DNA from: Candidatus Levyibacteriota bacterium
GTDB taxonomy: Bacteria > Patescibacteriota > Microgenomatia > Levybacterales > UBA12049
Direction of reading: 5' to 3'
NCBI GenBank assembly: GCA_052034235.1
Contig: JBPOIT010000002.1
Location: 69,939-133,938, forward strand
DNA length: 64,000 bases
Below the pieces are notes generated by a model. That model saw only the letters and a program-made list of their open reading frames with translations. It did no database searches and was not told the origin of the DNA. This document shows positions 1-46,529 of the stretch, piece after piece. Every line of letters starts with the position of its first letter. Position 1 is the stretch's first letter. The position numbers and the translations under genes were made by a program.

Positions 1-1
1 T

Positions 2-208
2 GCAAACGGTCAAGCAAATGCAATCGAAGTGCCTGCAAAAGATGAAGTAACATTGAACCAATTGTCTCTACCTGAAACAGGTGTTGCAGCAGTCGCTTCA
101 ACGTCCAGTACAGGACTCTTTGATCTCTGCCCGGAGTGTGGCTCAGGAACACTTGCTTACGAAGAAGGTTGTAAAAAATGCTATGCCTGCGGGTATAGTG
201 AGTGTTAA
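2..208 (+). CDS. 3' end of a ribonucleotide reductase-like protein, probably class II NrdJ-type, with a C-terminal Cys-rich zinc-ribbon tail; partial, start lies outside the window
   Basis: Open frame from position 2 to TAA at 206-208; translated tail ...[29 protein letters not shown] resembles the Cys-rich C-terminal tails of ribonucleotide reductases. Confidence 0.4.
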
Positions 209-211
209 AAA

Positions 212-335
212 AGAAAGAGGAAATCACGGTGTAAATCCGTGGCTGTGCCGCAACTGTTAAAGCCAGAAAACGTATGTCCGCATGTCGCGGAATCCCGAGC
301 AGGAAATCAAGGAATTATTATCCTTCTGCCTGCTT
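212..335 (+). promoter_or_regulatory. Cobalamin (B12) riboswitch #1 in the leader of the 355-1810 operon
   Basis: Core GAGGAAATCACGGTGTAAATCCGTGGCTGTGCCGCAACTGTTAAAGCCAGAAAAC matches the cobalamin riboswitch consensus (GGGAA..GGTG.AAATCC..GC.G.CCCGC.ACTGT then AGCCAG... B12-box-like); it ends at the RBS and ATG at 355. Confidence 0.7.
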
Positions 336-354
336 TCGGTAGAGGGATTTTTTT

Positions 355-735
355 ATGAAAAAAATTATTATCATTATCGTTGCGATTCTCATCTTTGCCT
401 TTGCTGGAGCATTTGCTGCGACGCAGGCTCCAACGACGCCTACTGACAAACCTCAGCCTCAAGTATCAACCGTCCCAACTAAATCAGTAATGAATGATGC
501 AGGCATTAGTTATCAAGGGAAAGAAGGTGTAGATGCGTTAACATTGCTCAAAGAAAACAATGAAGTAGAACAGAACGCTTCTGGGTTGGTAACGACTATT
601 GCTGGACGCAAAGCAGAAGACAGTAAAAGAGAATATTGGGCGTTTTACATTAACGGCAAAATGGCAGCAGTGGGACCTGCAGATTATGTAACCAAAGATA
701 CTGACAAACTTGAATGGAAGGTAGACAATTATTAA
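355..735 (+). CDS. Secreted DUF4430-like (transcobalamin-like) putative corrinoid-binding protein
   Basis: N-terminal signal peptide MKKIIIIIVAILIFAFAGAFA; C-terminal segment GVDALTLLKENNEVEQNASGLVTTIAGRKAEDSKREYWAFYINGKMAAVGPADYVTKDTDKLEWK has the DUF4430 pattern; immediately downstream of the B12 riboswitch. Confidence 0.6.
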   Translation: MKKIIIIIVAILIFAFAGAFAATQAPTTPTDKPQPQVSTVPTKSVMNDAGISYQGKEGVDALTLLKENNEVEQNASGLVTTIAGRKAEDSKREYWAFYINGKMAAVGPADYVTKDTDKLEWKVDNY

Positions 736-738
736 GCT

Positions 739-1266
739 ATGAAAAACTATTCACTTCTTTATCCTCTTAGTATCGTCTTTTTAGCTGCGTTTATGCGTAT
801 TGTGCCGCATCCAGTGAATGTTGCTCCAATTGCAGCCATGGCGCTTTTTGGTGGTGTGTATCTTGATAAGAAATATGCGCTGATAGTTCCGCTTGTTGCT
901 ATGTTTGCTTCAGATTTGTTTTTAGGTTTCCATGCAAGTATGCCAATGGTCTATGCAAGCTTTATCATAACCGGACTTATCGGTCTCTGGGTTCGCTCTC
1001 GCAAATCTGTCCCTACGGTACTGATTGCAAGCTTGAGTTCATCAATTATCTTTTTTCTGCTCACAAACTTTAACTATTGGTATGCAGCCTCTTTATATCC
1101 AAAAACATTTGTCGGGATCATCGAATCATATACAATGGCACTTCCGTTTTTTAGGAACACATTGCTAGGTGATCTTCTCTATGTAGGAGTATTCTTTGGC
1201 GGATATGAATTTTTGAAAGCAACTTTTTTCAAAACACACCCAACGATCGCTGCCCATAAAAAATAA
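739..1266 (+). CDS. Small polytopic membrane protein, ECF-transporter S-component-like (possible corrinoid uptake component)
   Basis: 175 aa with about 5-6 hydrophobic helices; 3 nt after the previous gene and 1 nt before the next; sits in the B12-riboswitch operon. The functional assignment is an inference. Confidence 0.45.
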   Translation: MKNYSLLYPLSIVFLAAFMRIVPHPVNVAPIAAMALFGGVYLDKKYALIVPLVAMFASDLFLGFHASMPMVYASFIITGLIGLWVRSRKSVPTVLIASLSSSIIFFLLTNFNYWYAASLYPKTFVGIIESYTMALPFFRNTLLGDLLYVGVFFGGYEFLKATFFKTHPTIAAHKK

Positions 1267-1267
1267 C

Positions 1268-1810
1268 ATGCCTATTTATACAAGAACTGGAGATAAAGGA
1301 GACACAGCTCTTTTTGATGGATCACGTGTTTCTAAATCGCACCCCCGTGTTGAAACGTATGCAGTTATTGACGAGCTGAATAGTGTTCTTGGGGAAGTCC
1401 TAGCGTTTATGCCTAAAAGTATTTCTAAGCAGCTCACAAAAGAACTAGAACAGATTCAGCATGATTTGTTTGCCATAGGTTCAGTTTTGGCTCTTCCGCA
1501 TCCTATGCCAGTTCAGGGTTTGGAAAAACGGCCAAAGGAGTTTGAAGAGATTATTGATTCCTTAACCAAAAAACTACCAGAACTAAAGAATTTTATCCTA
1601 CCTGGTGGAGGCAAGTCAGGATCACTTCTGCACGTTGCCAGAACCCTCGCCAGACGCGCTGAGAGGCGCGTAGTGACGCTTAAAGAGACTGATGAGGTTG
1701 ATACACATATTTTGGTATATCTCAACCGTCTTTCCGATTTGTTATTTACCATGGCGCGTTCTGTAAATCATCAAGAAAAACGTAAAGAGATTAAGTGGAT
1801 TAAAAAATAA
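1268..1810 (+). CDS. PduO-type ATP:cob(I)alamin adenosyltransferase
   Basis: N-terminus MPIYTRTGDKGDTALFDGSRVSKSHPRVETYAVIDELNSVLG matches the PduO-type ATR signature (YTRTGDKG...DELNS). Confidence 0.85.
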   Translation: MPIYTRTGDKGDTALFDGSRVSKSHPRVETYAVIDELNSVLGEVLAFMPKSISKQLTKELEQIQHDLFAIGSVLALPHPMPVQGLEKRPKEFEEIIDSLTKKLPELKNFILPGGGKSGSLLHVARTLARRAERRVVTLKETDEVDTHILVYLNRLSDLLFTMARSVNHQEKRKEIKWIKK

Positions 1811-1811
1811 A

Positions 1812-1958
1812 CGGGTGAAACCGGTGTAATTCCGGTACTGTGCCGCAACTGTAAAGTCGCCTTTGGTGACAAGTCAGATCCCCATTCCTGAAACGCAGGA
1901 TAAAGACTTCCGAGCTAGAAGCACATCATTTGCTGCAACTTCTCGGAAACGAGGAGTT
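1812..1958 (+). promoter_or_regulatory. Cobalamin (B12) riboswitch #2 in the leader of the 1964-3412 gene
   Basis: GGGTGAAACCGGTGTAATTCCGGTACTGTGCCGCAACTGTAAAG core is nearly identical to riboswitch #1; downstream AAGTCAGATCCCCATTCCTG is B12-box-like; a terminal hairpin TCTCGGAAACGAGGAG overlaps the AGGAG RBS just before ATG 1964. Confidence 0.7.
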
Positions 1959-1963
1959 TTTTT

Positions 1964-3412
1964 ATGGGTAATATTATTGAAGGACATTTCAGGCAGCACA
2001 CATACGAACCACCACAAACCATTGGCGCATTAGCGCTTTCTGAACCTGTATCGCAACGTTCTCAGCTCAGACTCGTTCGGGATATACAACCCGAACCAAA
2101 AGACGCCAATGTCGTAATGCTTAGCCGTGCGATAAGAACATCGCTGTCAGCACCTTCTGCCTCTATTGTTGATGGCGCTCGCCAGTCAGTTATAGAAACA
2201 GATCTTCAAGAACTTAGAAGTTTGCAGTGTGAGTTCGATGCTGCACTGGGACGAACATATGATTCACAAGATTTGCTGCAGCGATCGTATAATCCTGTTA
2301 TCGACGTATTGCATATGAAACAATTGCGTCGGAAAGGAGATATTGAAGGCGAACGGGCTCATATGCAAGAAATTAATCTGAATATGGAAACAAACTTACG
2401 GGAACGGTATAAGGTTTCTAAAAGTGTTATTGATTATCACATGAATGGGGGGAGATTATATTCGCAACATTTTCCTCATGAGCCGTTTGGAAAGGTATTG
2501 GAAAGAGGTGTTGAATACCGGCTGCAACATAATACACCTGAACCTGAACGTGAAGGCGTGCTGGGTGAACAAGCTGGCTGGGCAATCATTGAGAATAAAT
2601 TAACTGACCCCAAGACGAAAATTGGTTCAAAGATGACTGCATTTTCTCCACCTGGCCTGGCTAAGAATACGGCATACACGGGTAAATTTATTGATGAATA
2701 TGAATTGGCTGAGAATAAACTTGGGGAAAGATACGTCAAGCTGACTCGATATGCGGTAAAATTTGATGAGGCAGAATATGCACGCGCCGCACTATCGCTT
2801 GATCCTGATTACTTTAAGGGCTATGATGGGAGACCAAAAGATGCATGGATGTTGGCACATCCCGTTGAAGGTTCTCTCAATATTCAGGAAGATCAGATAA
2901 ATGTGAATGCAGATTTTGTTCCTGATCTTAAAAGTGGAAAATTGTTAAGCTTTTTAAACTATTATAAACATGCACTTGGCGAAGAACCAATAGATTGGAA
3001 AAAGATAGCACTGACATTTAATGCCTTTCTCAATCAATCAGATGAGGAAAGGGCAGCTTATGATAAGGGTGGAAAGGTATTGAAACATGGAGACATGCCA
3101 GTATCAATTGCAGCCATTAAAAGTGAAATTTATAAAAAAGGTATGCAGCAAGTGCGAACAGTTGTTGGGGGCGGATGTCCTCCGAATAAAGGTTTTAGTA
3201 TCACAAATAGTTTGAATACAGGCTCAAGTATTAGTGTGAGGGAACCAGGGACTGCGCAATTTAGTGTGTTCAGTAAGATGAGTACTCTTGGAAAAAAAAC
3301 CGTTCATTGCAACGAGTGTCCTAATTGCAAAGAAAAGGATATTGATGCCAAAGTTATGGGAGGTAGAATTATTTGTCCAAAGAATGGCTGCTCAGCACCG
3401 TATGCGTGTTAA
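1964..3412 (+). CDS. Uncharacterised 482-aa protein under B12-riboswitch control, with a C-terminal Cys-rich tail (CNECPNCK...CPKNGCSAPYAC)
   Basis: Long ORF directly after riboswitch #2; no signal peptide or TM segment evident; no family recognised by eye. Confidence 0.6.
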   Translation: MGNIIEGHFRQHTYEPPQTIGALALSEPVSQRSQLRLVRDIQPEPKDANVVMLSRAIRTSLSAPSASIVDGARQSVIETDLQELRSLQCEFDAALGRTYDSQDLLQRSYNPVIDVLHMKQLRRKGDIEGERAHMQEINLNMETNLRERYKVSKSVIDYHMNGGRLYSQHFPHEPFGKVLERGVEYRLQHNTPEPEREGVLGEQAGWAIIENKLTDPKTKIGSKMTAFSPPGLAKNTAYTGKFIDEYELAENKLGERYVKLTRYAVKFDEAEYARAALSLDPDYFKGYDGRPKDAWMLAHPVEGSLNIQEDQINVNADFVPDLKSGKLLSFLNYYKHALGEEPIDWKKIALTFNAFLNQSDEERAAYDKGGKVLKHGDMPVSIAAIKSEIYKKGMQQVRTVVGGGCPPNKGFSITNSLNTGSSISVREPGTAQFSVFSKMSTLGKKTVHCNECPNCKEKDIDAKVMGGRIICPKNGCSAPYAC

Positions 3413-3415
3413 TGT

Positions 3416-3565
3416 ATGAATACAAAAGAGTGTGTAACATGTTTCAAAATAATTTGTAAACAGTGCGGCTGGGAAGCTCAAGAGTGTGATGTTTTGTTGA
3501 TTCAAAAAGGGGAGATGACTGCTTGTCCTGATTGTGGGTGGAAACCAGGTGAAAAGGTCTTATAA
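3416..3565 (+). CDS. Small (49 aa) zinc-ribbon protein
   Basis: ATG 4 nt after the previous stop; MNTKECVTCFKIICKQCGWEAQECDVLLIQKGEMTACPDCGWKPGEKVL has CxxC...CxxC...CxxC spacing; below the 60-aa ORF-track threshold. Confidence 0.4.
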   Translation: MNTKECVTCFKIICKQCGWEAQECDVLLIQKGEMTACPDCGWKPGEKVL

Positions 3566-3594
3566 TGGAAGTATTATCATGCTAAGATTAAAGT

Positions 3595-4146
3595 ATGGAT
3601 AATACTCAGCAAAGACCTATACAGCAGCCGACACAGCATGTCGCGTTACCTGTGCCAGACATTCCTTCTGAAGATATAGTCAAAAAACCAGAAGAACAAT
3701 CTCAAATTAGTGGACCAAATAAAGAATTGGGACCGATGTCAGCTTCTCCAAGCGAATCAGGGGGGCAGCCTGAATCAGACGATGAAGATGAAATAAAAGT
3801 TGCCAGGCAGGAAGTAATGCTTGGGCAGAAAGTCACTCCGGCAAAAGAAGTTCCCATTTCAAAGGAGCTGCAGGAAGCAGGCGTTGAGCAGGGTTCTGAC
3901 ACTGAGCAGGAAATACCTGTCGTAGTACAACGAGCGGGTATGCGGGCAACAAGTGCTGATTCTGCGATACCAGTGTCAGCAACAGCGTCCATCAAGCTTC
4001 CGATTAGCTACGCACATGCAAAAGAACTTGACAAGCACGCTAAAATAAAAGAATCAATAAAATGGCTTGCACGATTTATCAAACGTCAGTGGGAGCGTGT
4101 GCAGTTTGTCGAAAAACATAAAGAGCAAAAATTGGAGGAACTATGA
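3595..4146 (+). CDS. Acidic, low-complexity hypothetical protein, co-transcribed with the downstream ATPase
   Basis: 183 aa rich in E, D, Q and P; its stop overlaps the next start (ATGA at 4143-4146). Confidence 0.45.
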   Translation: MDNTQQRPIQQPTQHVALPVPDIPSEDIVKKPEEQSQISGPNKELGPMSASPSESGGQPESDDEDEIKVARQEVMLGQKVTPAKEVPISKELQEAGVEQGSDTEQEIPVVVQRAGMRATSADSAIPVSATASIKLPISYAHAKELDKHAKIKESIKWLARFIKRQWERVQFVEKHKEQKLEEL

Positions 4147-6536
4147 ACTTACAGGCAGCAACACCAGACATGATTATTGGATTGTTAATAAATCTTATCC
4201 TCGCAGTTGCGATAGTAGCGATTCTGTGCGGTTTGGGATATGGCGCCTGGATTGTCTTTGTTATGTGGATGAGAAATCGGTCACGAGAGTCTCAATCTTT
4301 AAACTCCACGCTCCTGCAGGTAACCATGCCGAGAGATAACGAAGTAAAAATCGATGCTGCTGAACAACTCTTCTCAAGCCTTGCGTCACTCCGCGTAACC
4401 TGGAATTCTGACAGAATGTATTACTTTAAATCACAGCCGCAGTTGTCTTTTGAACTTGTAGGTTTACCGGGTGATATCAGATTTTATGTGAACGTGCCAA
4501 ATAAATTTAGAGATTTTGTTGAAAAGCAGATAAATGGTGCTTACCCAGACGCTGAGATTCTGGCAGTTAATGAGCCTTCAGCAAAGCAACGAGACGGTGC
4601 TGTAATTGGTACTGAATACAATATTTTTTCTGACAATGGTAAAGTTGCCTTTTACGCAATGACATTAAAGGCAGCTTCTTATTTGCCAATTCAAGTATAT
4701 AAAGAGTTGCCTGTGGATCCACTTTCATCACTTACTTCAACCCTCGCTAAGATGGGAGAAGGAGAAGGGGCAGCTATCCAATTGGTAGTGCGTTCAACTG
4801 ACAGTAAGTGGAAAAAGCTAGGAAGGTCATATCTTAGCTCTACAAAAAAAGCAGAATCAAATCCAGAGAAAGCTAGTTACAAAACAGACGCAAAAGAACT
4901 TGAAGCTATTGAAACAAATATTCAAAAAGCGGGGTTTGAAGCCGCTGTGAGGATTGTTGTATGCGCCAAAACTGAGGCTGCTGCGCAGGCACATCTGGAC
5001 ACCATTAAAAACGCGTTTAGTCAGTATAACGGGCTTAATTCGTTTCGACGCCACAGAGTTATGTTTAAGGGGCTTTTCATGACTGACTTTATTTATCGCT
5101 ATTTCCCACTCTGGGGACAGACTTCCATTTTCAGCGTTGCTGAAATAGCAACGTTGTGGCATATGCCAAATAAAGCCATTTTAACCCCAGGTGTGCATTG
5201 GTTGACAGCCAAACGTGCCCCAGCGCCTTCAAATATCGCCACAACAGGTTTGTATTTAGGAAAGAGCGTGTACCGTGGACTCATGCGTCCTGTGTTTATT
5301 GAACGTGATGACAGGCGCCGACATACTTATATTATCGGAAAAACCGGTACCGGTAAAACTGAATTTTTGAAACAGATGATTATGCAGGATATTAATGCAG
5401 GGGAAGGCTTAGCTGTTATTGATCCTCATGGAGATTTAGTCGAAGACATTTTGAAGTTAATCCCACCAAAACGTGCTGAAGACGTTATTTTGTTTGATCC
5501 TTCTGATACCGAAAGGCCGATGGGCTTTAACATGCTTGAAGCAGATACTGAGCAGCAGAAGCATTTTGTAGTTAATTCTATTATCGGTCTTATGTATAAG
5601 CTTTTTGATCCTAATAAAACCGGTATTATCGGTCCGCGTTTTGAGCATGCAATCCGTAACGCGATGCTTACTGTTATGTACGAGAAGGGGAGCACCTTTA
5701 TTGAAGTTGTTCGTGTTTTGACTGATCAGAAATTTGTAGAGGAGTTACTCCCCAAAGTGGAAGATCCTATTATTCGTCGGTACTGGACTGATCAGATTGC
5801 TCAAACATCTGACTTCCATAAGTCTGAAGTGTTGGATTACATCACCTCAAAGTTTGGAAGGTTTGTTACTAACAAAATGATTCGTAATATCATCGGACAA
5901 TCAGATAGCGCATTCCAGTTCAGAAAAGTTATGGATGAGGGCAAAATTCTGCTTATTAACCTTTCCAAAGGTAAAATCGGAGAGGAGAATGCGAGTTTCT
6001 TAGGTTTGGTTCTTGTGCCTAAAATTTTGGTTGCAGCCATGTCCAGACAGGATATTATCGATAAAGACAAAAGACGTGACTTTTTTCTTTATGTCGACGA
6101 GTTCCAGAATTTTGCAACGCCTGATTTTGCTCAAATTCTTTCTGAGGCTCGAAAATACAAACTTAATCTGATTGTTGCAAACCAGTTTATCGGACAAATG
6201 GAAGAAGAAATTAAAAACGCTATCTTTGGTAACGTGGGTACAATTGCTTCATTCCGCGTGGGTGTGACTGATGCAAACTATCTGCAGCATGAATTCTCAC
6301 CAATCTTTAATGAAGTCGATTTGGTAAATGTTGATAAGTACAATGCGTATATGCGTACCATCGTCAATGGTGAACCGGTGAGACCATTCTCAATTGATAC
6401 AACCAAAGATGTCGCTAAAGAAAAAGCGCTGGAGAATGAACGCGTTGCTGAGTTAGTGAAAGAATTATCACGTCTAAAATACGGCAAGAGTGTCGATTCA
6501 GTCGAGGCAGAAATTGCACAGCGGGCTAAGCTCTAA
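4143..6536 (+). CDS. Membrane-anchored FtsK/HerA/TraD-superfamily P-loop ATPase (TrwB/VirD4/AAA_10-like coupling-protein architecture)
   Basis: Two N-terminal TM helices (IIGLLINLILAVAIVAILCGLGYGAWIVFVMW); Walker A HTYIIGKTGTGKTEFLKQMI...AVIDPHGDL; Walker B FLYVDEFQNF; 797 aa. Confidence 0.6.
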   Translation: MNLQAATPDMIIGLLINLILAVAIVAILCGLGYGAWIVFVMWMRNRSRESQSLNSTLLQVTMPRDNEVKIDAAEQLFSSLASLRVTWNSDRMYYFKSQPQLSFELVGLPGDIRFYVNVPNKFRDFVEKQINGAYPDAEILAVNEPSAKQRDGAVIGTEYNIFSDNGKVAFYAMTLKAASYLPIQVYKELPVDPLSSLTSTLAKMGEGEGAAIQLVVRSTDSKWKKLGRSYLSSTKKAESNPEKASYKTDAKELEAIETNIQKAGFEAAVRIVVCAKTEAAAQAHLDTIKNAFSQYNGLNSFRRHRVMFKGLFMTDFIYRYFPLWGQTSIFSVAEIATLWHMPNKAILTPGVHWLTAKRAPAPSNIATTGLYLGKSVYRGLMRPVFIERDDRRRHTYIIGKTGTGKTEFLKQMIMQDINAGEGLAVIDPHGDLVEDILKLIPPKRAEDVILFDPSDTERPMGFNMLEADTEQQKHFVVNSIIGLMYKLFDPNKTGIIGPRFEHAIRNAMLTVMYEKGSTFIEVVRVLTDQKFVEELLPKVEDPIIRRYWTDQIAQTSDFHKSEVLDYITSKFGRFVTNKMIRNIIGQSDSAFQFRKVMDEGKILLINLSKGKIGEENASFLGLVLVPKILVAAMSRQDIIDKDKRRDFFLYVDEFQNFATPDFAQILSEARKYKLNLIVANQFIGQMEEEIKNAIFGNVGTIASFRVGVTDANYLQHEFSPIFNEVDLVNVDKYNAYMRTIVNGEPVRPFSIDTTKDVAKEKALENERVAELVKELSRLKYGKSVDSVEAEIAQRAKL

Positions 6537-6583
6537 GCTTCTTTTTTCCTCGTATTTTTGCTACAATCGTGAGTGTTCTAACC

Positions 6584-6656
6584 GGGCCAGTAGTTCAGTG
6601 GCTAGAACAGCTGTCTTATACACAGCATGTCGGAGGTTCGAGTCCTCCCTGGCCCA
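6584..6656 (+). tRNA. tRNA-Ile, anticodon TAT (UAU)
   Basis: Cloverleaf by hand: acceptor GGGCCAG/CTGGCCC, D-arm GTTC-AGTGGCTAG-AAC, anticodon stem GCTGT/ACAGC with loop CTTATAC (anticodon TAT at 6617-6619), T-arm GGAGG-TTCGAGT-CCTCC, discriminator A. Confidence 0.7.
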
Positions 6657-6671
6657 CTCAGGACCTAATCA

Positions 6672-7217
6672 GTGCCTGGATTTTACCTCATGAAGAAAAT
6701 CTTACTTTACGCAGCATTTAGTGTCATTATCATTGGAAGTTTAGGGGTCATTTTTAGGAATCAGATCCAAGCAACACTTTTCCCCATTAAAGAAATACAT
6801 ATCCATGCAGGATTTCAAGTTTATGAAAACGGCAAACAAAAATCCTTCGAAGATTTTGCCTACATGAACGACAAACCATGCGGTGATCACGCTCCGGGTG
6901 AACATGTTGATGAACAGCTTGAAAAAGCTCATTTGCATGAATTGGTAGGAGATGTTGTGCACGTTCATCGTGAAGGTGCAACGTGGGGAGATCTTTTTAC
7001 CAATCTAAAATATCCCCTTGAGGCAGAAAAGATTGAGGCATATGTTAATGGTGAGAAGTTACCGATGGTTTTGGCACGCAAAATCCAGCCGTATGATCGT
7101 TTGGTCGTGTTTATTGGCAATCGTGATGAAAACCTCAATAAGTATCTGGACAAACAAGTTACAAAGGATCATATTGTAAAGACGGAAAAGCGCAGCGAAC
7201 AATGCGGCAAAGTATAA
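6672..7217 (+). CDS. Membrane-anchored or secreted His-rich hypothetical protein (likely start MKKILLY at 6690)
   Basis: N-terminal hydrophobic segment; His-rich stretches (HIHAGF, HLHELVGDVVHVH); no family recognised. Confidence 0.4.
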   Translation: MPGFYLMKKILLYAAFSVIIIGSLGVIFRNQIQATLFPIKEIHIHAGFQVYENGKQKSFEDFAYMNDKPCGDHAPGEHVDEQLEKAHLHELVGDVVHVHREGATWGDLFTNLKYPLEAEKIEAYVNGEKLPMVLARKIQPYDRLVVFIGNRDENLNKYLDKQVTKDHIVKTEKRSEQCGKV

Positions 7218-7218
7218 T

Positions 7219-7770
7219 ATGAAACTACCACCAGACGCAAAAAAAGTATTTCAAGGCAAAATCTTCTCAGTTTTCCAGTGGGAGCAGGAAATGTATGATG
7301 GTACGACTGCCACGTTTGAAATGCTCAAACGTCTAGGCACAATCCAAATTATCCCAACAATAGGGGACAAAATCCTCCTATCGCACGAAGAACAGCCAAC
7401 CAAACCCAAAAGTTTTACTTTCCTCGGCGGTAGGCAGGAAACAGATGAAGAACCACTCGTGACTGCCAAACGCGAATTATTGGAGGAAGCAGGTTTAGAA
7501 TCGGAGGAGTGGGAACTTTTAAAGATCTATCACAATGACGGCAAAATTGAATGGGACGTGTATCTCTTTGCAGCGCGTAATTGCAAGAAAATTACCGAGC
7601 CAAATCTAGATGCCGGAGAAAAAATTGATGTTGTAGAAGTGAGTTGGGAGGAATTCCTCGAAAAAGTCTCAAGCGAACATTTCTGGGGTCAAATTATTGC
7701 TAATGATATTTTACGTATGCGGTTAGATTCTACTAAGCTGGAATCCTTAAAGAAGAAGTTATTACCCTAA
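7219..7770 (+). CDS. NUDIX hydrolase
   Basis: Nudix box GGRQETDEEPLVTAKRELLEEAGL (Rex4LLEExG). Confidence 0.75.
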   Translation: MKLPPDAKKVFQGKIFSVFQWEQEMYDGTTATFEMLKRLGTIQIIPTIGDKILLSHEEQPTKPKSFTFLGGRQETDEEPLVTAKRELLEEAGLESEEWELLKIYHNDGKIEWDVYLFAARNCKKITEPNLDAGEKIDVVEVSWEEFLEKVSSEHFWGQIIANDILRMRLDSTKLESLKKKLLP

Positions 7771-7790
7771 TTAATACTAATTAGTATTAT

Positions 7791-18334: not shown

Positions 18335-19261
18335 ATGAAGAAATTGTTGATTATTGATGGGAATGCTATTCTTCACCGTGCATATCATGCGTATCCACCT
18401 CTTACTAATCCCAAAGGAGATGTTATTAATGCAGTTTATGGATTTTTCTCCATGCTTCTTACCATTCTGCAGGATCAAAAGCCTGATTATTTAGTTGTTT
18501 GTTTTGATCGCGGCAAGCCTACTCTTCGTCAAACCATGTATGCAGGATATCATGCACATAGACCCAAAATGGCTGATGATTTTGTTTTTCAGGTGAAGCT
18601 TGTTGATGAGATTGTTGAGAAGATGAATATTGCGGTGTTTGCAATGGAAGGGTATGAGGCTGATGATCTTATTGGTACGATTGCGAAAAAAGTTGTTGAT
18701 GATCATGGCAAAGAAGTGATTATTGTGACAGGGGATCGGGATTTACTGCAGCTTGTGAATCCTCACGTGTCTATCCTCATGCCGCTTAATGGTCTCACCA
18801 AAACTGCGCTTTTTGATGAAGAGGCAGTGGAAGCAAAATACGGAGTGCATCCGAGGCAGTTTATTGACTATAAAGCACTTATCGGTGATCAATCTGATGG
18901 TTATCCTGGTGTGACAGGTATTGGTCCGAAAAGTGCTGCCAAACTGCTTCAGGAATACGGGACATTTGAAAACCTATATCTGAAAGTGAATGAATTGCCT
19001 CCCAAAGTCGGTCTGAAACTAGCAACGGATGCAGAACAGGCGAGTTTGGCCAAACAATTGGCAACAATCATGACTGATATACCTCTCCAGTTTGATCTCA
19101 AAAAAAGTGAGTGCTCCAATTTTGATCTAAAAGCGCTTCGAAAAGCGTTTAGAGAACAAGGCTTTACCAGTCTGTTGGGACGTCTTGATCTCATGTTTGG
19201 GAAAGAAGTTGAACCAGTAGCAGAAGAAATAAAATCTTCTGATCAACTTGAACTTCTATGA
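18335..19261 (+). CDS. Stand-alone 5'-3' exonuclease (FEN/Pol I N-terminal domain-like)
   Basis: MKKLLIIDGNAILHRAYHA..., TGDRDLLQL, and an HhH region with GVTGIGPKSAAKLL. Confidence 0.8.
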   Translation: MKKLLIIDGNAILHRAYHAYPPLTNPKGDVINAVYGFFSMLLTILQDQKPDYLVVCFDRGKPTLRQTMYAGYHAHRPKMADDFVFQVKLVDEIVEKMNIAVFAMEGYEADDLIGTIAKKVVDDHGKEVIIVTGDRDLLQLVNPHVSILMPLNGLTKTALFDEEAVEAKYGVHPRQFIDYKALIGDQSDGYPGVTGIGPKSAAKLLQEYGTFENLYLKVNELPPKVGLKLATDAEQASLAKQLATIMTDIPLQFDLKKSECSNFDLKALRKAFREQGFTSLLGRLDLMFGKEVEPVAEEIKSSDQLELL

Positions 19262-19911
19262 AAATCCCAAAACACATAAAAGCAGTTATTTTTGATATGG
19301 ATGGACTGCTTATTGATTCAGAACCATATTGGCGTCAAACCACTGAAGCATATTTTGCAAAACACAACAAACCGTTTTCAGACGAAGTACATCGTCATAT
19401 CATGGGCAGAGGCCTTCGTGACATCATTGAATATTTCAAAAGCGAGTGGGGTTTTGAGGGGGATACGGATGCCATGATTGTTGAGCGAAAAGAACTTTTA
19501 TATACGTATCTCTTGGAAAATTTAACACTCATGGAAGGTGCAGAAGAGCTTATCAGAGCGCTTCATGAAAAAAGCATACCTCTCGCCATTGCAACAAGCG
19601 GTCATTCTGTTGAAAAGACAAAACAAATTGTGCAGAAGTTTGATTTAGAAAAATGCTTTACACTTTTTGTCTCGGGTGATGATGTCCCCAATGCGAAGCC
19701 CTCGCCAGATATCTATCTCAAAACCGCAAAGTTACTCAAAATCAGTCCATCAGATTGCCTGGTCTTTGAAGATGCTCCTAATGGCGTAAAGGCTGGAAAA
19801 GCTGCTGGTATGCTCGTATATGGTATAAATAGTGAAGAGGAAATCGGTAACAAACTCAAAAAAGAACATGCAGATTATATTGCTAAATCACTAACTGAGA
19901 TTGAAGTATGA
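19258..19911 (+). CDS. HAD-IA family phosphatase (beta-phosphoglucomutase-like)
   Basis: AVIFDMDGLLIDSE (DxDG), ...SG... and GDDVPNAKP...FEDAPNGVKAG motifs. Confidence 0.75.
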   Translation: MKIPKHIKAVIFDMDGLLIDSEPYWRQTTEAYFAKHNKPFSDEVHRHIMGRGLRDIIEYFKSEWGFEGDTDAMIVERKELLYTYLLENLTLMEGAEELIRALHEKSIPLAIATSGHSVEKTKQIVQKFDLEKCFTLFVSGDDVPNAKPSPDIYLKTAKLLKISPSDCLVFEDAPNGVKAGKAAGMLVYGINSEEEIGNKLKKEHADYIAKSLTEIEV

Positions 19912-42718: not shown

Positions 42719-43304
42719 GTGAAGAGAATATCCTGTATTACCCCGTCAGCCGACGGGTTGATTCAGGATAAAAAACGTCTTAGTACTACGTTTCGCATGC
42801 GCGTGATCGTAGTACTTAATAAATTTATTATTAATGCCAACAACGGATGCCTAGGAGATTTTGACCGAGGAAGGACGCAGACGGCGGCGATACTCGTCGG
42901 GGAAGTGCCATCAACTTTTGATCCGGCGGTTTCCGAATGGAGCAATCCCTCCCATACGGGAGAGCCACGCGTGAAGTTAATTCCGCAAGGAGTTATATTA
43001 GCGTTTGGCTGGGAACGGCGTGAACTGAAACATCTTAGTAACGCCAGGAATATAAATCATATGAGATTCCGTCAGTAGCGGTGAGCGAAAGCGGAAAAGG
43101 CTAAACCACTTTAAGTGGGGTTGCAGGGCAGACGATATTCGAGTGTAGCAGGTAGCAGAAAGGTCCGGAATGGCCTTCCAAAGAGAGTGAAAGACTCGTA
43201 TGCGAAACTTTCTACACCGATAGTTTGTTCCTAAGTACCATGGAGCACGATAAACTTTGTGGGAATCTGGGTCGACCACGATCCAAGCCTAAATATCAAA
43301 ATCT

Positions 43305-43343
<39 letters not shown>

Positions 43344-43915
43344 CACCCCGGAAGGGGAATGAAATAGAACTGAAATTGTTGGCTAACAAGCAGCCAGAGT
43401 CCGCAGCAATGCAGGATGATGGTGTGCCTATTGAAGAATGAGCCGGTGAGTTTTTGAATACTGCTCGTTTAACCAATTTTCATTGGGAAGACATAGTGAA
43501 AGCGAGCCCTAACTGGGCTATTTACGTAGTATTCATAAAACCCGAAACTGGGTGAGCTAACCTTGAGCAGGTTGAGTCTCGAGTAATATCGAGAGGAGGA
43601 CCGAACTCGTGTCCGTAGCAATGGGCTGAGATGACTTGAGGTTAGGGGCAATATGCCAAACGAACCCAGAGATAGCTGGTTCTCCCCGAAATATATTAAG
43701 GTATAGCGCTGGTTATAACACAGGGGGTAGAGCACTGAATGGTTTATGGGGGGGCAACCTCTCGTAGCTTATCAAACTCCGAATACCTGTACTTGAATTC
43801 CAGTAGTCAGACTTGTCGGGCTAAGCTGATGAGTCAAAAGGGAAACAGCCCAGACTCCCAACTAAGGCCTCTAAATAGTAGCTAAGTTTTTAAGGAAGTC
43901 ACAACCCAGAGACAC

Positions 43916-43946
<31 letters not shown>

Positions 43947-44814
43947 TAAAGATAGCGTAACAGCTCACTGGCGGATGGTTTGTGGCGCCGAAAATTTATC
44001 GAGGATTAAGCTACTTGCCGAAATTGGAGAATTTATAATTTCTTAATTATAATTTGGTAGGGGAGCGTTCTATTTGCAGTGAAGTTGTGGTGTAAACCAT
44101 GGTGGAGCGGATAGAAGTGAGAATGCCGGCATGAGTAGCGCAATGCAGATGAGATATCTGCACACCGAAAGCCCAAGGTTTCCTCCGCAATGTACATCAA
44201 CGGAGGGTAAGTCGGCTCCTAAGGGTATTCCTCGTTAAAGGGGATTAGCCCGATGGACAACGCGTTAATATTCGCGTACAGGATATAAGTATTGTAAGGG
44301 GGTGACGTAGTAGGAAGTCTCAAGCATGCCGCAAGGTGTGTCCAAGCAGTAAGGTAGTGACGATAGGCAAATCCGTCGTTGTGTTTAATCGAGCTGCAAA
44401 TGAAAGTTCCCTGTTAAAGGGGGATAATTTGAACACTTTCAATTACCGGGAAAAGCCTCATTATACTTCCTTTATGGATAGTAAAACTTATGTTTTGCCG
44501 TACCGCAAACCGACACAGGTGGGCAGGTCGAGTAGACTAAGGTGATCGGGAGACAGAGGATTAAGGAACTCGGCAAAAAAGCTAGGCGTAACCTATGGGA
44601 GATGCCTCGCCGCGCGTAAAAACGCGGTTACAACAAAAGTGTACTTGGCGACTGTTTATCTAAAACACAGGTCCCTGCAAAAGCGAAAGCTAACGTATAG
44701 GGGCTGACACCTGCCCAGTGCTGGTAAGTCAAAAATCTCGGATGAAGGTAGTAATACACAGTCTAGGATTTAAGCTCCAGTAAACGGCAGCAGTAACTAT
44801 AACTGTTCTATGGT

Positions 44815-45067
44815 AACTAACTTCGTTGCCTTAGAAATAACGTGTTTTAGAAAATCCAACTATATGCTGGAATAGCTCAGTATCTGACAGTACCTGAAAA
44901 GGTAAAAATCTGATCAGTGGAGCCAATCAGCAGGGAAGATCCCGATTTAATCGGGAAACCCTCAGAGACTACATGTTGGAGTCCAGCTAGGCTGGGCAAG
45001 ATATAGTCCGACCTTTATGGCGACATAAAGAATTATAGATTACAAGGATCTATAGATTAACATATTG
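44815..45067 (+). other. Putative ORF-less group I intron/intervening sequence in 23S domain IV, near the E. coli 1931 site
   Basis: 23S collinearity breaks after ...GTAACTATAACTGTTCTATGGT(U) and resumes at (G)AGCGAAGTTCCTTGTCGGG; about 253 nt with no rRNA homology; 5' flank ends in U and the insert ends in G, as for group I introns. The exact boundaries are uncertain. Confidence 0.5.
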
Positions 45068-45074
45068 AGCGAAG

Positions 45075-45109
<35 letters not shown>

Positions 45110-45538
45110 TAGAACGACCAAGTAACTGTCTTAATCCTTTACCCGGCGAAATTGAGATGGCTGTGAAGACGCGGCCTAGGTATACATGGACAAAAAGACC
45201 CCGGGAGCTTTACTGTAGCTTGGCATTTGCAAGCTTATTTCAATTATTTAGAATAGGAGGGAGATTCGTCATCAGTGAAATACCTCTTTTTGGAATGAGT
45301 GAGCATAACTTGGACCCGCTTAAAAATACGGGCCAGGGACAGTGTCTGGTGGGCAGTTTTACTGGGGAGGTAGGCTCCTACAACGCAACGGAGCCGCGCA
45401 ATGGTTGGCTAACTCCGGATGGAAATCGGAGTGATAGTGTAAATGCACAAGCCAGCTTGACTGCGAGACCTACAAGTCGAGCAGGTACGAAAGTAGGCGT
45501 TAGTGATCCTGTGATGGATAGTGGTATCCACACAGCTT

Positions 45539-45571
<33 letters not shown>

Positions 45572-45614
45572 GATCGCATCCAAGCGTCCATAGCGACGAT
45601 GCGGTTTGGCACCT

Positions 45615-45932
45615 TAACTACAACATTGGGGCGCCTTAGAGAGTAATCTCTAAAGTCTGGTTATCAACAAACATGCAGATAGAGAATGCATAAAGATAAT
45701 AAAAATACTAGTTCAAATCGGTGAACACCAATAGTGCGAACAGCTGTTGGTCAATACCGAGATTCGACTTTATGTCGGATTGTATCGACTGATTCCTGAT
45801 TATCAAATTAGGATGAGATAGAAACTCTGTTTGGTTAAACAAACAAATTTATAGTTTTTATCATACGACTAGCTCCTCTACAATGATGAAGAGGATGAAG
45901 GTATAGTCAGCGCACATAGTAATATGTGATTG
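45615..45932 (+). other. Putative ORF-less group I intron/intervening sequence in the 23S peptidyl-transferase region, near the E. coli 2500 site
   Basis: TTTGGCACCT | 318 nt | CGATGTCGGCTCATCACATCC. The flanks rejoin to the universal GGCACCUCGAUGUCGGCUC sequence; the insert starts after U and ends in G. Confidence 0.6.
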
Positions 45933-45993
45933 CGATGTCGGCTCATCACATCCTGGAGCTGGAGAAGGTTCCAAGGGTCCGGCTGTTCGCCGG

Positions 45994-46024
<31 letters not shown>

Positions 46025-46169
46025 GCGTGAGCCAGTTCGGTCTCTATCCTGTATACCCGTGTGAGATTTGAGGAGATTCGACCCTAGTACGAGAGGACTG
46101 GGTTGAGGGAATCCCTGGTGTGTCGGTTGTTTCCCGAAAGGAGCACTGCCGAGTAGCTAGATTCCCAAC

Positions 46170-46202
<33 letters not shown>

Positions 46203-46417
46203 GCCTCCGAGATAAGATCTCGATGGATCGCAAGATCCGAAAAACCCCTTGTAGACTACGAGGTTGATAGGAGGGCAGTAGAAGTACAGTAATGTATTAA
46301 GCTTACCCTTACTAATGGTTGACAATAAATTTATTAAGACGTTTTGCCCGCCGAAAGGTTGGTTATCTCTTCACTTGCTAGGGAACTAGCATGTTAGTAC
46401 CTTTAAAGATAAAAATT

Positions 46418-46529
46418 TCTTGGTGATTTGAGCGGTGTGGCACCACCTCTTCCCTTTCCGAACAGAGAAGTGAAACACGCCAGCGCCTACGATACTGCTT
46501 TTTAGTGGGACAATAGGTCATCGCCAGGA
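46418..46529 (+). rRNA. rrf: 5S ribosomal RNA
   Basis: ...GGTGTGGCACCACCTCTTCCCTTTCCGAACAGAGAAGTGAAACACGCCAGCGCCTACGATACTG...GTGGGA...CATCGCCAGG matches 5S conserved helices and loops. Confidence 0.85.

Follow-up and report, generated by a model that had tools for sequence, protein, structure and literature searches.

A predicted cobalamin riboswitch within a B12 salvage operon of Patescibacteria precedes an undescribed protein family linked to the PduO-type adenosyltransferase

The left end of a 64,000-nucleotide stretch of DNA from a Candidatus Levyibacteriota bacterium (the window) is a single gene row on the + strand, running from position 2 to 6536. In it, the 3' end of a class II, vitamin B12-dependent ribonucleotide reductase (RNR; NrdJ) gene is followed by genes for two putative B12 uptake proteins (DUF4430 and DUF6580), for a PduO-type ATP:cob(I)alamin adenosyltransferase (ATR) and for a 482-aa protein that we refer to as X (Table 1). 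B12 salvage clusters gated by a riboswitch are a known type of operon; new here are X, which represents an undescribed, sizeable protein family, and the riboswitch subclass that is specific to X. X is separated from ATR by a spacer of 153 nt that holds a second riboswitch (RS2), the first (RS1) lying at the head of the operon. A probable B12-dependent RNR C-terminus had been called at this place in a first-pass annotation of the sequence, and this is borne out by the 100% identity of positions 2-205 to residues 749-816 of the 816-aa RNR of another locus, L010, which has the domains Ribonuc_red_lgN/lgC/TSCPD.

Table 1. Features of the gene row at the left end of the window
Feature	Position	Strand	Evidence
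Class II (B12-dependent) RNR gene, 3' end: last 68 codons, six-Cys C-terminal tail	2..208	+	identity to L010 RNR
Leader before DUF4430 gene	209-354	+	
Riboswitch 1 aptamer (RS1 class)	215..306	+	RF01689 at 219-271, 39.9 bits (gathering score 36.5); covariance model R1
RS1 terminator/sequestor hairpin, then T-run and ATG at 355	320..348	+	terminator scan
DUF4430 protein with N-terminal signal/lipoprotein-like segment; putative extracytoplasmic B12 binder	355..735	+	Pfam PF14478, E 1.3e-13
DUF6580 membrane protein, energy-coupling factor (ECF) S-component-like; putative B12 transporter	739..1266	+	Pfam PF20221, E 2.1e-51; weak ECF_trnsprt matches
PduO-type ATP:cob(I)alamin adenosyltransferase (ATR)	1268..1810	+	Pfam PF01923, E 2.5e-58; no terminator after
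Riboswitch 2 aptamer (RS2 class)	1810..1921	+	RF01482 (sub-threshold); R1; covariation
RS2 expression platform: terminator hairpin CUUCUCG-GAAA-CGAGGAG and U7	1937..1963	+	terminator scan, conformer and duplex energies
X, 482-aa protein of an undescribed family	1964..3412	+	open reading frame list, profile searches, conservation, structure model
49-aa Cys-rich zinc-ribbon mini-protein	3416..3565	+	weak Zn_ribbon matches
183-aa protein (p183), no assigned family	3595-4146	+	
Membrane-anchored DUF8128/TraG-like ATPase	4143-6536	+	

The riboswitch between ATR and X

A second cobalamin-type riboswitch had been proposed at 1812-1958 in the first-pass annotation. At Rfam gathering thresholds a scan of the 64 kb reported RS1 alone as a cobalamin riboswitch and did not list RS2. 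In a permissive scan of 4.2 kb, RF01482 (AdoCbl, clan CL00101) matched 1799-1934 with 44.8 bits and an E-value of 3.8e-6, so that the proposal found a significant covariance match in Rfam, albeit one that misses the gathering score of 50. Comparative evidence came from 24 aligned leaders preceding X homologues, from which a covariance model (R1) was built. Across the 64-kb window R1 scored 90.3 bits at 1810-1921 and 40.3 bits at RS1 (215-306), and it returned no element beyond these two. A four-helix core of 15 pairs, drawn by hand from the Rfam alignment and then tested on the 24 leaders, was paired in 95.8% of cells, with compensatory (double) changes in 9 of the 15 pairs; these values were reached in none of 500 shuffles, and controls with a slid register were at most 46% paired. 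A GGUG/UGCC helix given by RNAalifold on a first, 9-sequence alignment conflicts with the Rfam-supported P4 and was dropped.

The recognisable parts of RS2 are P2 (GGG/CCC), P3 (1817-1821/1829-1833), the core CUGUGCCGCAACUGU, the B12 box AAGUCAG and a P13 hairpin at 1907-1921 (CUUC-CGAGCUA-GAAG). The core, a GCCACUG-like element, and the box (AAGYCAG) are invariant or nearly so across the 24 leaders, the same core sequence is present in RS1 elements that pass RF01689, and the P13 hairpin has a conserved CGAGCA-type loop on a stem that covaries. Because the significant sub-threshold match is joined by this comparative evidence, RS2 is strongly supported, on sequence grounds, as a real member of the cobalamin riboswitch clan. 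Elements of this type stay under all Rfam gathering scores in the window and in 11 other loci. When 10 loci were scanned permissively, RF01689 was matched in one (L008, 44.6 bits, above its threshold of 36.5) and RF01482 in another (L067, 35.3 bits), the remaining eight giving no match at E<=0.01. At L029 (~1990-2070), the P13 loop of the X leader carries an insertion of ~70 nt in which extra hairpins are possible, with aptamer and terminator otherwise intact.

Downstream of the aptamer, a terminator-like hairpin (1937-1958) and its T-run abut the ATG of X at 1964. A terminator scan of the + strand of 1-7300 found leader-located hairpins running into a T-run and an ATG only here and at 320-348; one more match (4228-4255) lies inside the ATPase gene, and neither the end of ATR nor the stretch from X to the ATPase had one. 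Since no terminator follows ATR, RS2 would be a checkpoint inside a longer transcription unit. GAGGAG, the 3' arm of the 1937-1958 hairpin, is at the same time the Shine-Dalgarno sequence of X, 7 nt from its ATG, so that the hairpin is predicted also to sequester the ribosome-binding site.

The 5' strand of P13, UUCCGAG (1908-1914), is complementary to the 5' arm and loop of the terminator (CUCGGAA), and this antiterminator pairing covaries between loci, as in UUUUCGAG:CUCGAAAA, UUCCGGG:CCCGGAA, CCGAAG:CUUCGG and UCUCGAG:CUCGAGA. As leaders in which the P13 loop is longer by one base were misaligned by MAFFT, the pairing was evaluated by duplex energy and permutation and not by column counts; matched partners had a mean of -10.05 kcal/mol vs -8.18 kcal/mol for mismatched ones, and none of 10000 permutations was as low. 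The terminator and antiterminator conformers of 1905-1966 are nearly isoenergetic (-14.9 vs -14.1 kcal/mol). Because a covarying antiterminator competes with a terminator that buries the Shine-Dalgarno sequence, the predicted anatomy of RS2 strongly supports a ligand-induced OFF switch. With ligand bound, the P13 hairpin would be held in the folded aptamer and the 1937-1958 hairpin with its U-run would form, terminating transcription and burying GAGGAG; with no ligand, UUCCGAG of P13 would pair with CUCGGAA of the terminator and X would be made.

RS1 and RS2 belong, judging from their sequences, to different cobalamin riboswitch subclasses. RS1 resembles RF01689, its end reading ...CAGAAAAC, and RS2, which is seen only before X, is closed by a GGGUGAA...AGAUCCCC helix. 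Six operon-leading elements of the RS1 class exceed the RF01689 gathering score, and three of these directly precede ATR-X. The window thus presents two cobalamin riboswitches of different subclasses placed in series within one operon, and RS2 defines an X-specific subclass that is missed by current Rfam thresholds.

The X family and its zinc-ribbon companion

X has a maximal 19-residue Kyte-Doolittle hydropathy of 0.89 and therefore neither a transmembrane segment nor a signal peptide, in keeping with the first-pass annotation. The absence of a recognisable family, likewise claimed there, held up in profile and structure searches. No Pfam or NCBIfam family was matched at E<=1 by X and 10 distant members. 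No PDB sequence match to X was obtained, a PDB profile search matched the zinc ribbon alone (weakly, to L37Ae-type ribbons at E 0.013), and comparison of the X model with the PDB by Foldseek gave nothing below E 0.01, so that no known transporter subunit or enzyme family emerged. Sequence profiles (Pfam, NCBIfam, PDB profile) do not place X in the MMACHC/CblC, PduS, CobR or BtuM families. Searches of the literature on DUF6580, on cobalamin riboswitches of Patescibacteria and on cobalamin, RNR and adenosyltransferase in the candidate phyla radiation (CPR) brought up nothing on the X family, and tblastn of X against phage and plasmid collections gave no match.

Word-indexed protein searching found 9 relatives only, and a second such search with a 60-sequence profile returned known close relatives only; an exhaustive profile search yielded 333 cluster representatives at E<=1e-3, 300 of them below 1e-10. 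As far as sampled, the family appears to occur only in Patescibacteria. Conservation was assessed on 60 diverse members with a mean column identity of 25%. Against this background E147, R148, G182, R196, S228, C405 and C452 are invariant, and at least 90% conservation is found at T143, R181, R186, E197, E202, G205, Y238, D244, R262, D293, L297, P300, N353, D360, G410, S429, C455, C471, C476 and C482, a pattern that looks enzyme-like. Six cysteines lie in the tail of X (C449, C452, C455, C471, C476 and C482), and all but C449 are at least 95% conserved, so that the Cys-cluster C-terminus pointed out in the first-pass annotation is a property of the whole family. The same conservation makes family-wide features of the Cys ribbon, the terminal Cys and the G-C405-G/P loop, which reads GGGCPPNKG in X.

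An AlphaFold model of X built from 60 sequences (predicted local distance difference test, pLDDT, 81; predicted template modelling score, pTM, 0.70) consists of a disordered N-terminus (1-65), a confident helical and five-stranded alpha/beta core (66-415), a disordered or flexible linker (418-443) and a small beta-ribbon (445-480), the strands of which are predicted at 445-479 with pLDDT ~88. With two CxxC-type knuckles on a small beta-ribbon, the modelled tail has the make-up of a Cys4 zinc ribbon. The part of the core at ~150-265 is modelled as a five-stranded antiparallel sheet with inserted helices, an arrangement that may be shared with the PAS, LOV and Cache small-molecule-binding domains; such domains and a haem-binding PAS-like demethylase subunit were its best structural matches, none at E <0.01. 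By a secondary-structure map of the model only, most of the invariant polar residues fall on the PAS-like helices and strands, which would be those that form the ligand pocket in PAS domains.

The stop codon of X is followed after a 3-nt gap (TAA tgt ATG), that is with the start 4 nt past the stop as originally described, by a 49-aa open reading frame (ORF) with 7 Cys. Homologues of this mini-protein follow X in at least 15 loci and one is fused to the C-terminus of X (P0010), which makes the ORF a recurrent and sometimes fused partner of X. At the other end of the gene, the segment 1950-2268 of the window, which takes in the terminator loop and ~100 initial codons of X, is unalignable with L010, the flanks (1-1949 and 2269-6097) being ~98% identical; between near-identical strains, the allele for the disordered N-terminus of X seems to have been replaced locally.

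Gene neighbourhood of X and alternative functions

We examined 83 loci, the window and 82 others, the latter made up of 13 from identity look-ups, three GTDB genomes annotated Candidatus Levyibacteriota or Patescibacteria (from a 10-sequence alignment search) and 66 metagenome loci forming a distant subgroup at ~25% identity to X. In 75 of the 83, distant subgroup included, the gene directly preceding X is ATR, and in the other 8 the contig ends within ~360 nt; ATR is thus present in 75/75 loci with enough upstream sequence. Searches with R1 covered 71 sources, 8 of which had too little sequence upstream of X, leaving 63 that were informative. A riboswitch lies between ATR and X in 38 of these, only in front of ATR in 21, and before a contiguous DUF4430-DUF6580-ATR-X row in one; none was found in three despite upstream sequence. 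X is therefore under a B12 riboswitch, its own or one held in common with ATR, in 60/63 informative sources, so that homologues elsewhere also sit behind such elements, a check suggested in the first-pass annotation. Of the 21 sources whose riboswitch lies only before ATR, 18 have the stop codon of ATR and the start codon of X in an overlap of 1-16 nt or at a distance of 1-5 nt, and translational coupling of the two genes is thus often predicted.

This arrangement bears on the functions offered in the first-pass annotation, of which a B12-trafficking factor fits best, with X directly after ATR and often coupled to it, and a B12-sparing enzyme or B12-independent substitute is disfavoured. OFF-switch control by B12 is classic for substitutes of the MetE or NrdAB/NrdDG type, and a protein made when B12 is lacking, for example for an alternative deoxynucleotide route, would agree both with that pattern of control and with the enzyme-like conservation of X. 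However, in the 21 sources just described X has no riboswitch of its own and stands on the leader of ATR, X always accompanies ATR (among loci that were retrieved through X), and it bears no likeness to any RNR, MetE or nucleoside salvage fold. A bypass enzyme is not expected on the leader of ATR and translationally coupled to it; on account of the common leader and the coupling we reject X as a B12-independent isozyme and consider such a role quite improbable.

Downstream, p183 and the TraG-like ATPase follow X in many loci, and the lack of a terminator from X to the ATPase in the window would allow X to be part of their module, serving for instance B12-regulated uptake of DNA or macromolecules. 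At least 10 loci (L036, L040, L041, L044, L049, L051, L053, L056, L060 and L061), however, lack the ATPase in the 3-5 kb that follow X, while ATR is always present, and a promoter-like site (10/12 matches) is found at 3539-3566, just before p183. For these two reasons we regard the ATPase as a neighbour and not an obligate partner, and membership of X in such a module as very improbable.

The wider cluster comprises NrdR, the B12-dependent RNR, B12 uptake genes, ATR and X. More than 40 loci have a class II RNR with a six-Cys tail ahead of their B12 genes, often together with NrdR. In a class II RNR with a comparable six-Cys C-terminal zinc tail, or Cys-rich C-terminal domain (CRD), this tail has been shown experimentally to be an electron shuttle, for which thioredoxin and glutaredoxin were both ineffective and the native donor was not identified (Loderer et al. 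2017, PMC5704485). X, which lies within the RNR cluster and whose analogous Cys-rich tail has Cys as its last residue, could be imagined as the missing physiological reductant of the CRD, acting by thiol-disulfide exchange. Yet X would be switched off by plentiful cobalamin, just when the B12-dependent RNR is active and in need of reductant, and it is tied to ATR and not to nrdJ. This riboswitch logic and the linkage to ATR lead us to reject X as the RNR reductant, a function that we hold to be improbable.

The main rival to the reading that we favour below is that X is a hand-off adaptor or chaperone by which adenosylcobalamin (AdoCbl) from ATR is loaded onto the class II RNR, or damaged cofactor is exchanged. 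Helpers of the MMAA/MeaB type serve mutases, and an adaptor role of X would resemble theirs on an unrelated fold. The conserved order NrdJ, uptake, ATR and X, the translational coupling of ATR and X and the presence of Cys-rich C-terminal ribbons on both X and NrdJ all speak for this possibility. On the other hand, X lacks an NTPase motif, its invariant Cys405 and numerous invariant charged residues are more suggestive of a catalyst than of an adaptor, and the gene order of X tracks ATR rather than NrdJ, so that we judge an adaptor unlikely, if less so than the alternatives above.

Several further features were recorded. In the region downstream of X (3595-6656), p183 and the DUF8128/TraG-VirD4-like ATPase, whose N-terminus has membrane helices, are joined by a tRNA; many loci repeat this trio after X, and at least 10 do not have it. 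A 23S rRNA gene in the region 42820-46529 of the window contains a group I intron (44805-45030) and is followed by a 5S gene (46419-46529); no 16S rRNA gene was found by the Rfam scan of the 64 kb, and the rRNA genes are on this basis unlinked. In L011 (2294-3886), and also in L012, the same B12 operon encodes a 530-aa protein with DUF4430 and a prenyltransferase/squalene-hopene-cyclase-like domain, an architecture that appears transcobalamin-like. The class II RNR frame of L033 (328-3972) has 1215 aa in place of the usual ~800-830, which suggests a large insertion, possibly an intein. On the - strand of L002 a group I intron match of 72.9 bits (19131-19788) lies beside a GIY-YIG ORF and away from the rRNA matches there, and on the - strand of L067 a fluoride-riboswitch-like match (7718-7779) reaches 32 bits against a gathering score of 34.

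A proposed role in adenosylcobalamin supply

Three properties of X are well supported: its predicted repression by cobalamin, its co-inheritance and frequent co-translation with the enzyme that makes AdoCbl, and its place in a cluster whose only visible B12 consumer is RNR. B12-repressed, ATR-coupled and lying in an RNR/B12 cluster, X should act in the acquisition or production of AdoCbl and not in its bypass. Genomic context strongly supports X as a partner of ATR, and X is probably a missing step in B12 salvage. The more specific reading that we favour, namely that X is a cytoplasmic accessory protein of the PduO-type ATR, gated by RS2 and engaged in thiol- or redox-based corrinoid processing for AdoCbl supply, is held as a whole with moderate confidence.

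According to this proposal X would be made only when AdoCbl is scarce and, together with the DUF4430 and DUF6580 uptake proteins and ATR, would supply AdoCbl to the adjacent class II RNR. The PAS-like pocket, lined by invariant Arg, Glu, Ser, Tyr and Asp, would hold an incoming corrinoid or a redox cofactor, and the invariant Cys405 loop and the mobile Cys-rich ribbon ending in Cys482 would deliver thiol-based reducing equivalents, possibly assisted by the separate 49-aa ribbon. X would then strip or reduce the upper ligand and pass cob(II)alamin or cob(I)alamin to ATR, thereby being analogous in function to CblC/MMACHC or to a cobalamin reductase but related to neither. Thiol- or cysteine-based reactions at cobalt are established for CblC and BtuM; we infer a thiol/redox role for X and prefer this mechanism by analogy with that chemistry and with the RNR tail.

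Several points weigh against the proposal. Every locus was retrieved through X, the likeness between the tails of X and RNR may be a pattern resemblance only, and the Cys ribbon of X may be purely structural zinc. In addition, RS2 falls short of the curated Rfam threshold, and its ligand form (AdoCbl vs other corrinoids) is only presumed.

More tentatively, and with rather less confidence than in the accessory role itself, X may found a new, Patescibacteria-specific class of PAS-like, cysteine-based corrinoid reductase or dealkylase that feeds the PduO-type ATR, replaces CblC and the cobalamin reductases without homology to them and is gated by its own uncatalogued cobalamin riboswitch subclass, RS2, whose corrinoid ligand may differ in form from that of the riboswitch at the operon head. 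On the evidence of these loci, Patescibacteria, with their minimal genomes, need scavenged B12 to make deoxynucleotides by the one route that is visible, the class II RNR. To our knowledge, the preparation of scavenged cobalamins for a PduO-type ATR, in which the upper ligand is removed and cob(I)alamin is reached by reduction, is poorly defined beyond a few model systems. The X family, ATR-coupled, conserved in an enzyme-like manner, B12-controlled and unrelated to described families, provides a concrete candidate for this preparation step or, alternatively, for delivery of the cofactor to RNR.

Considering known systems, RS2 shares with the riboswitches of clan CL00101 (RF01482 AdoCbl, RF01689 AdoCbl-II and RF00174 Cobalamin) the conserved core GCCGCAACUG and AAGYCAG B12 box, the P3/P4/P6 helices around a junction and, by prediction, an OFF switch with a terminator- or Shine-Dalgarno-sequestering platform upstream of B12-related genes; with the RF01482 consensus it also shares the downstream hairpin with a conserved CGAGCA loop. 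It differs from them as an X-specific subclass with the 5' GGGUGAA ... AGAUCCCC closing helix and an optional P6 extension, and in its position internal to an operon already headed by a different cobalamin riboswitch subclass. The flexible tail of X resembles the likewise flexible CRD of class II RNR in its cluster of five or six Cys at the extreme C-terminal end, the last of them at or beside the final residue, but the spacing is C-x2-C-x2-C-x15-C-x4-C-x5-C in X and C-x2-C-x11-C-x2-C-x2-C-x4-C in NrdJ, and X carries its tail on an unrelated PAS-like core. From CblC/MMACHC, BtuM and the PduS/flavodoxin-type cob(II)alamin reductases X stands apart in sequence and, according to the model, in fold, its PAS-like core being distinct from their nitroreductase-like, ECF S-component and flavodoxin/Fe-S folds; what X would have in common with them is the proposed slot in the pathway, between uptake and the PduO-type ATR.

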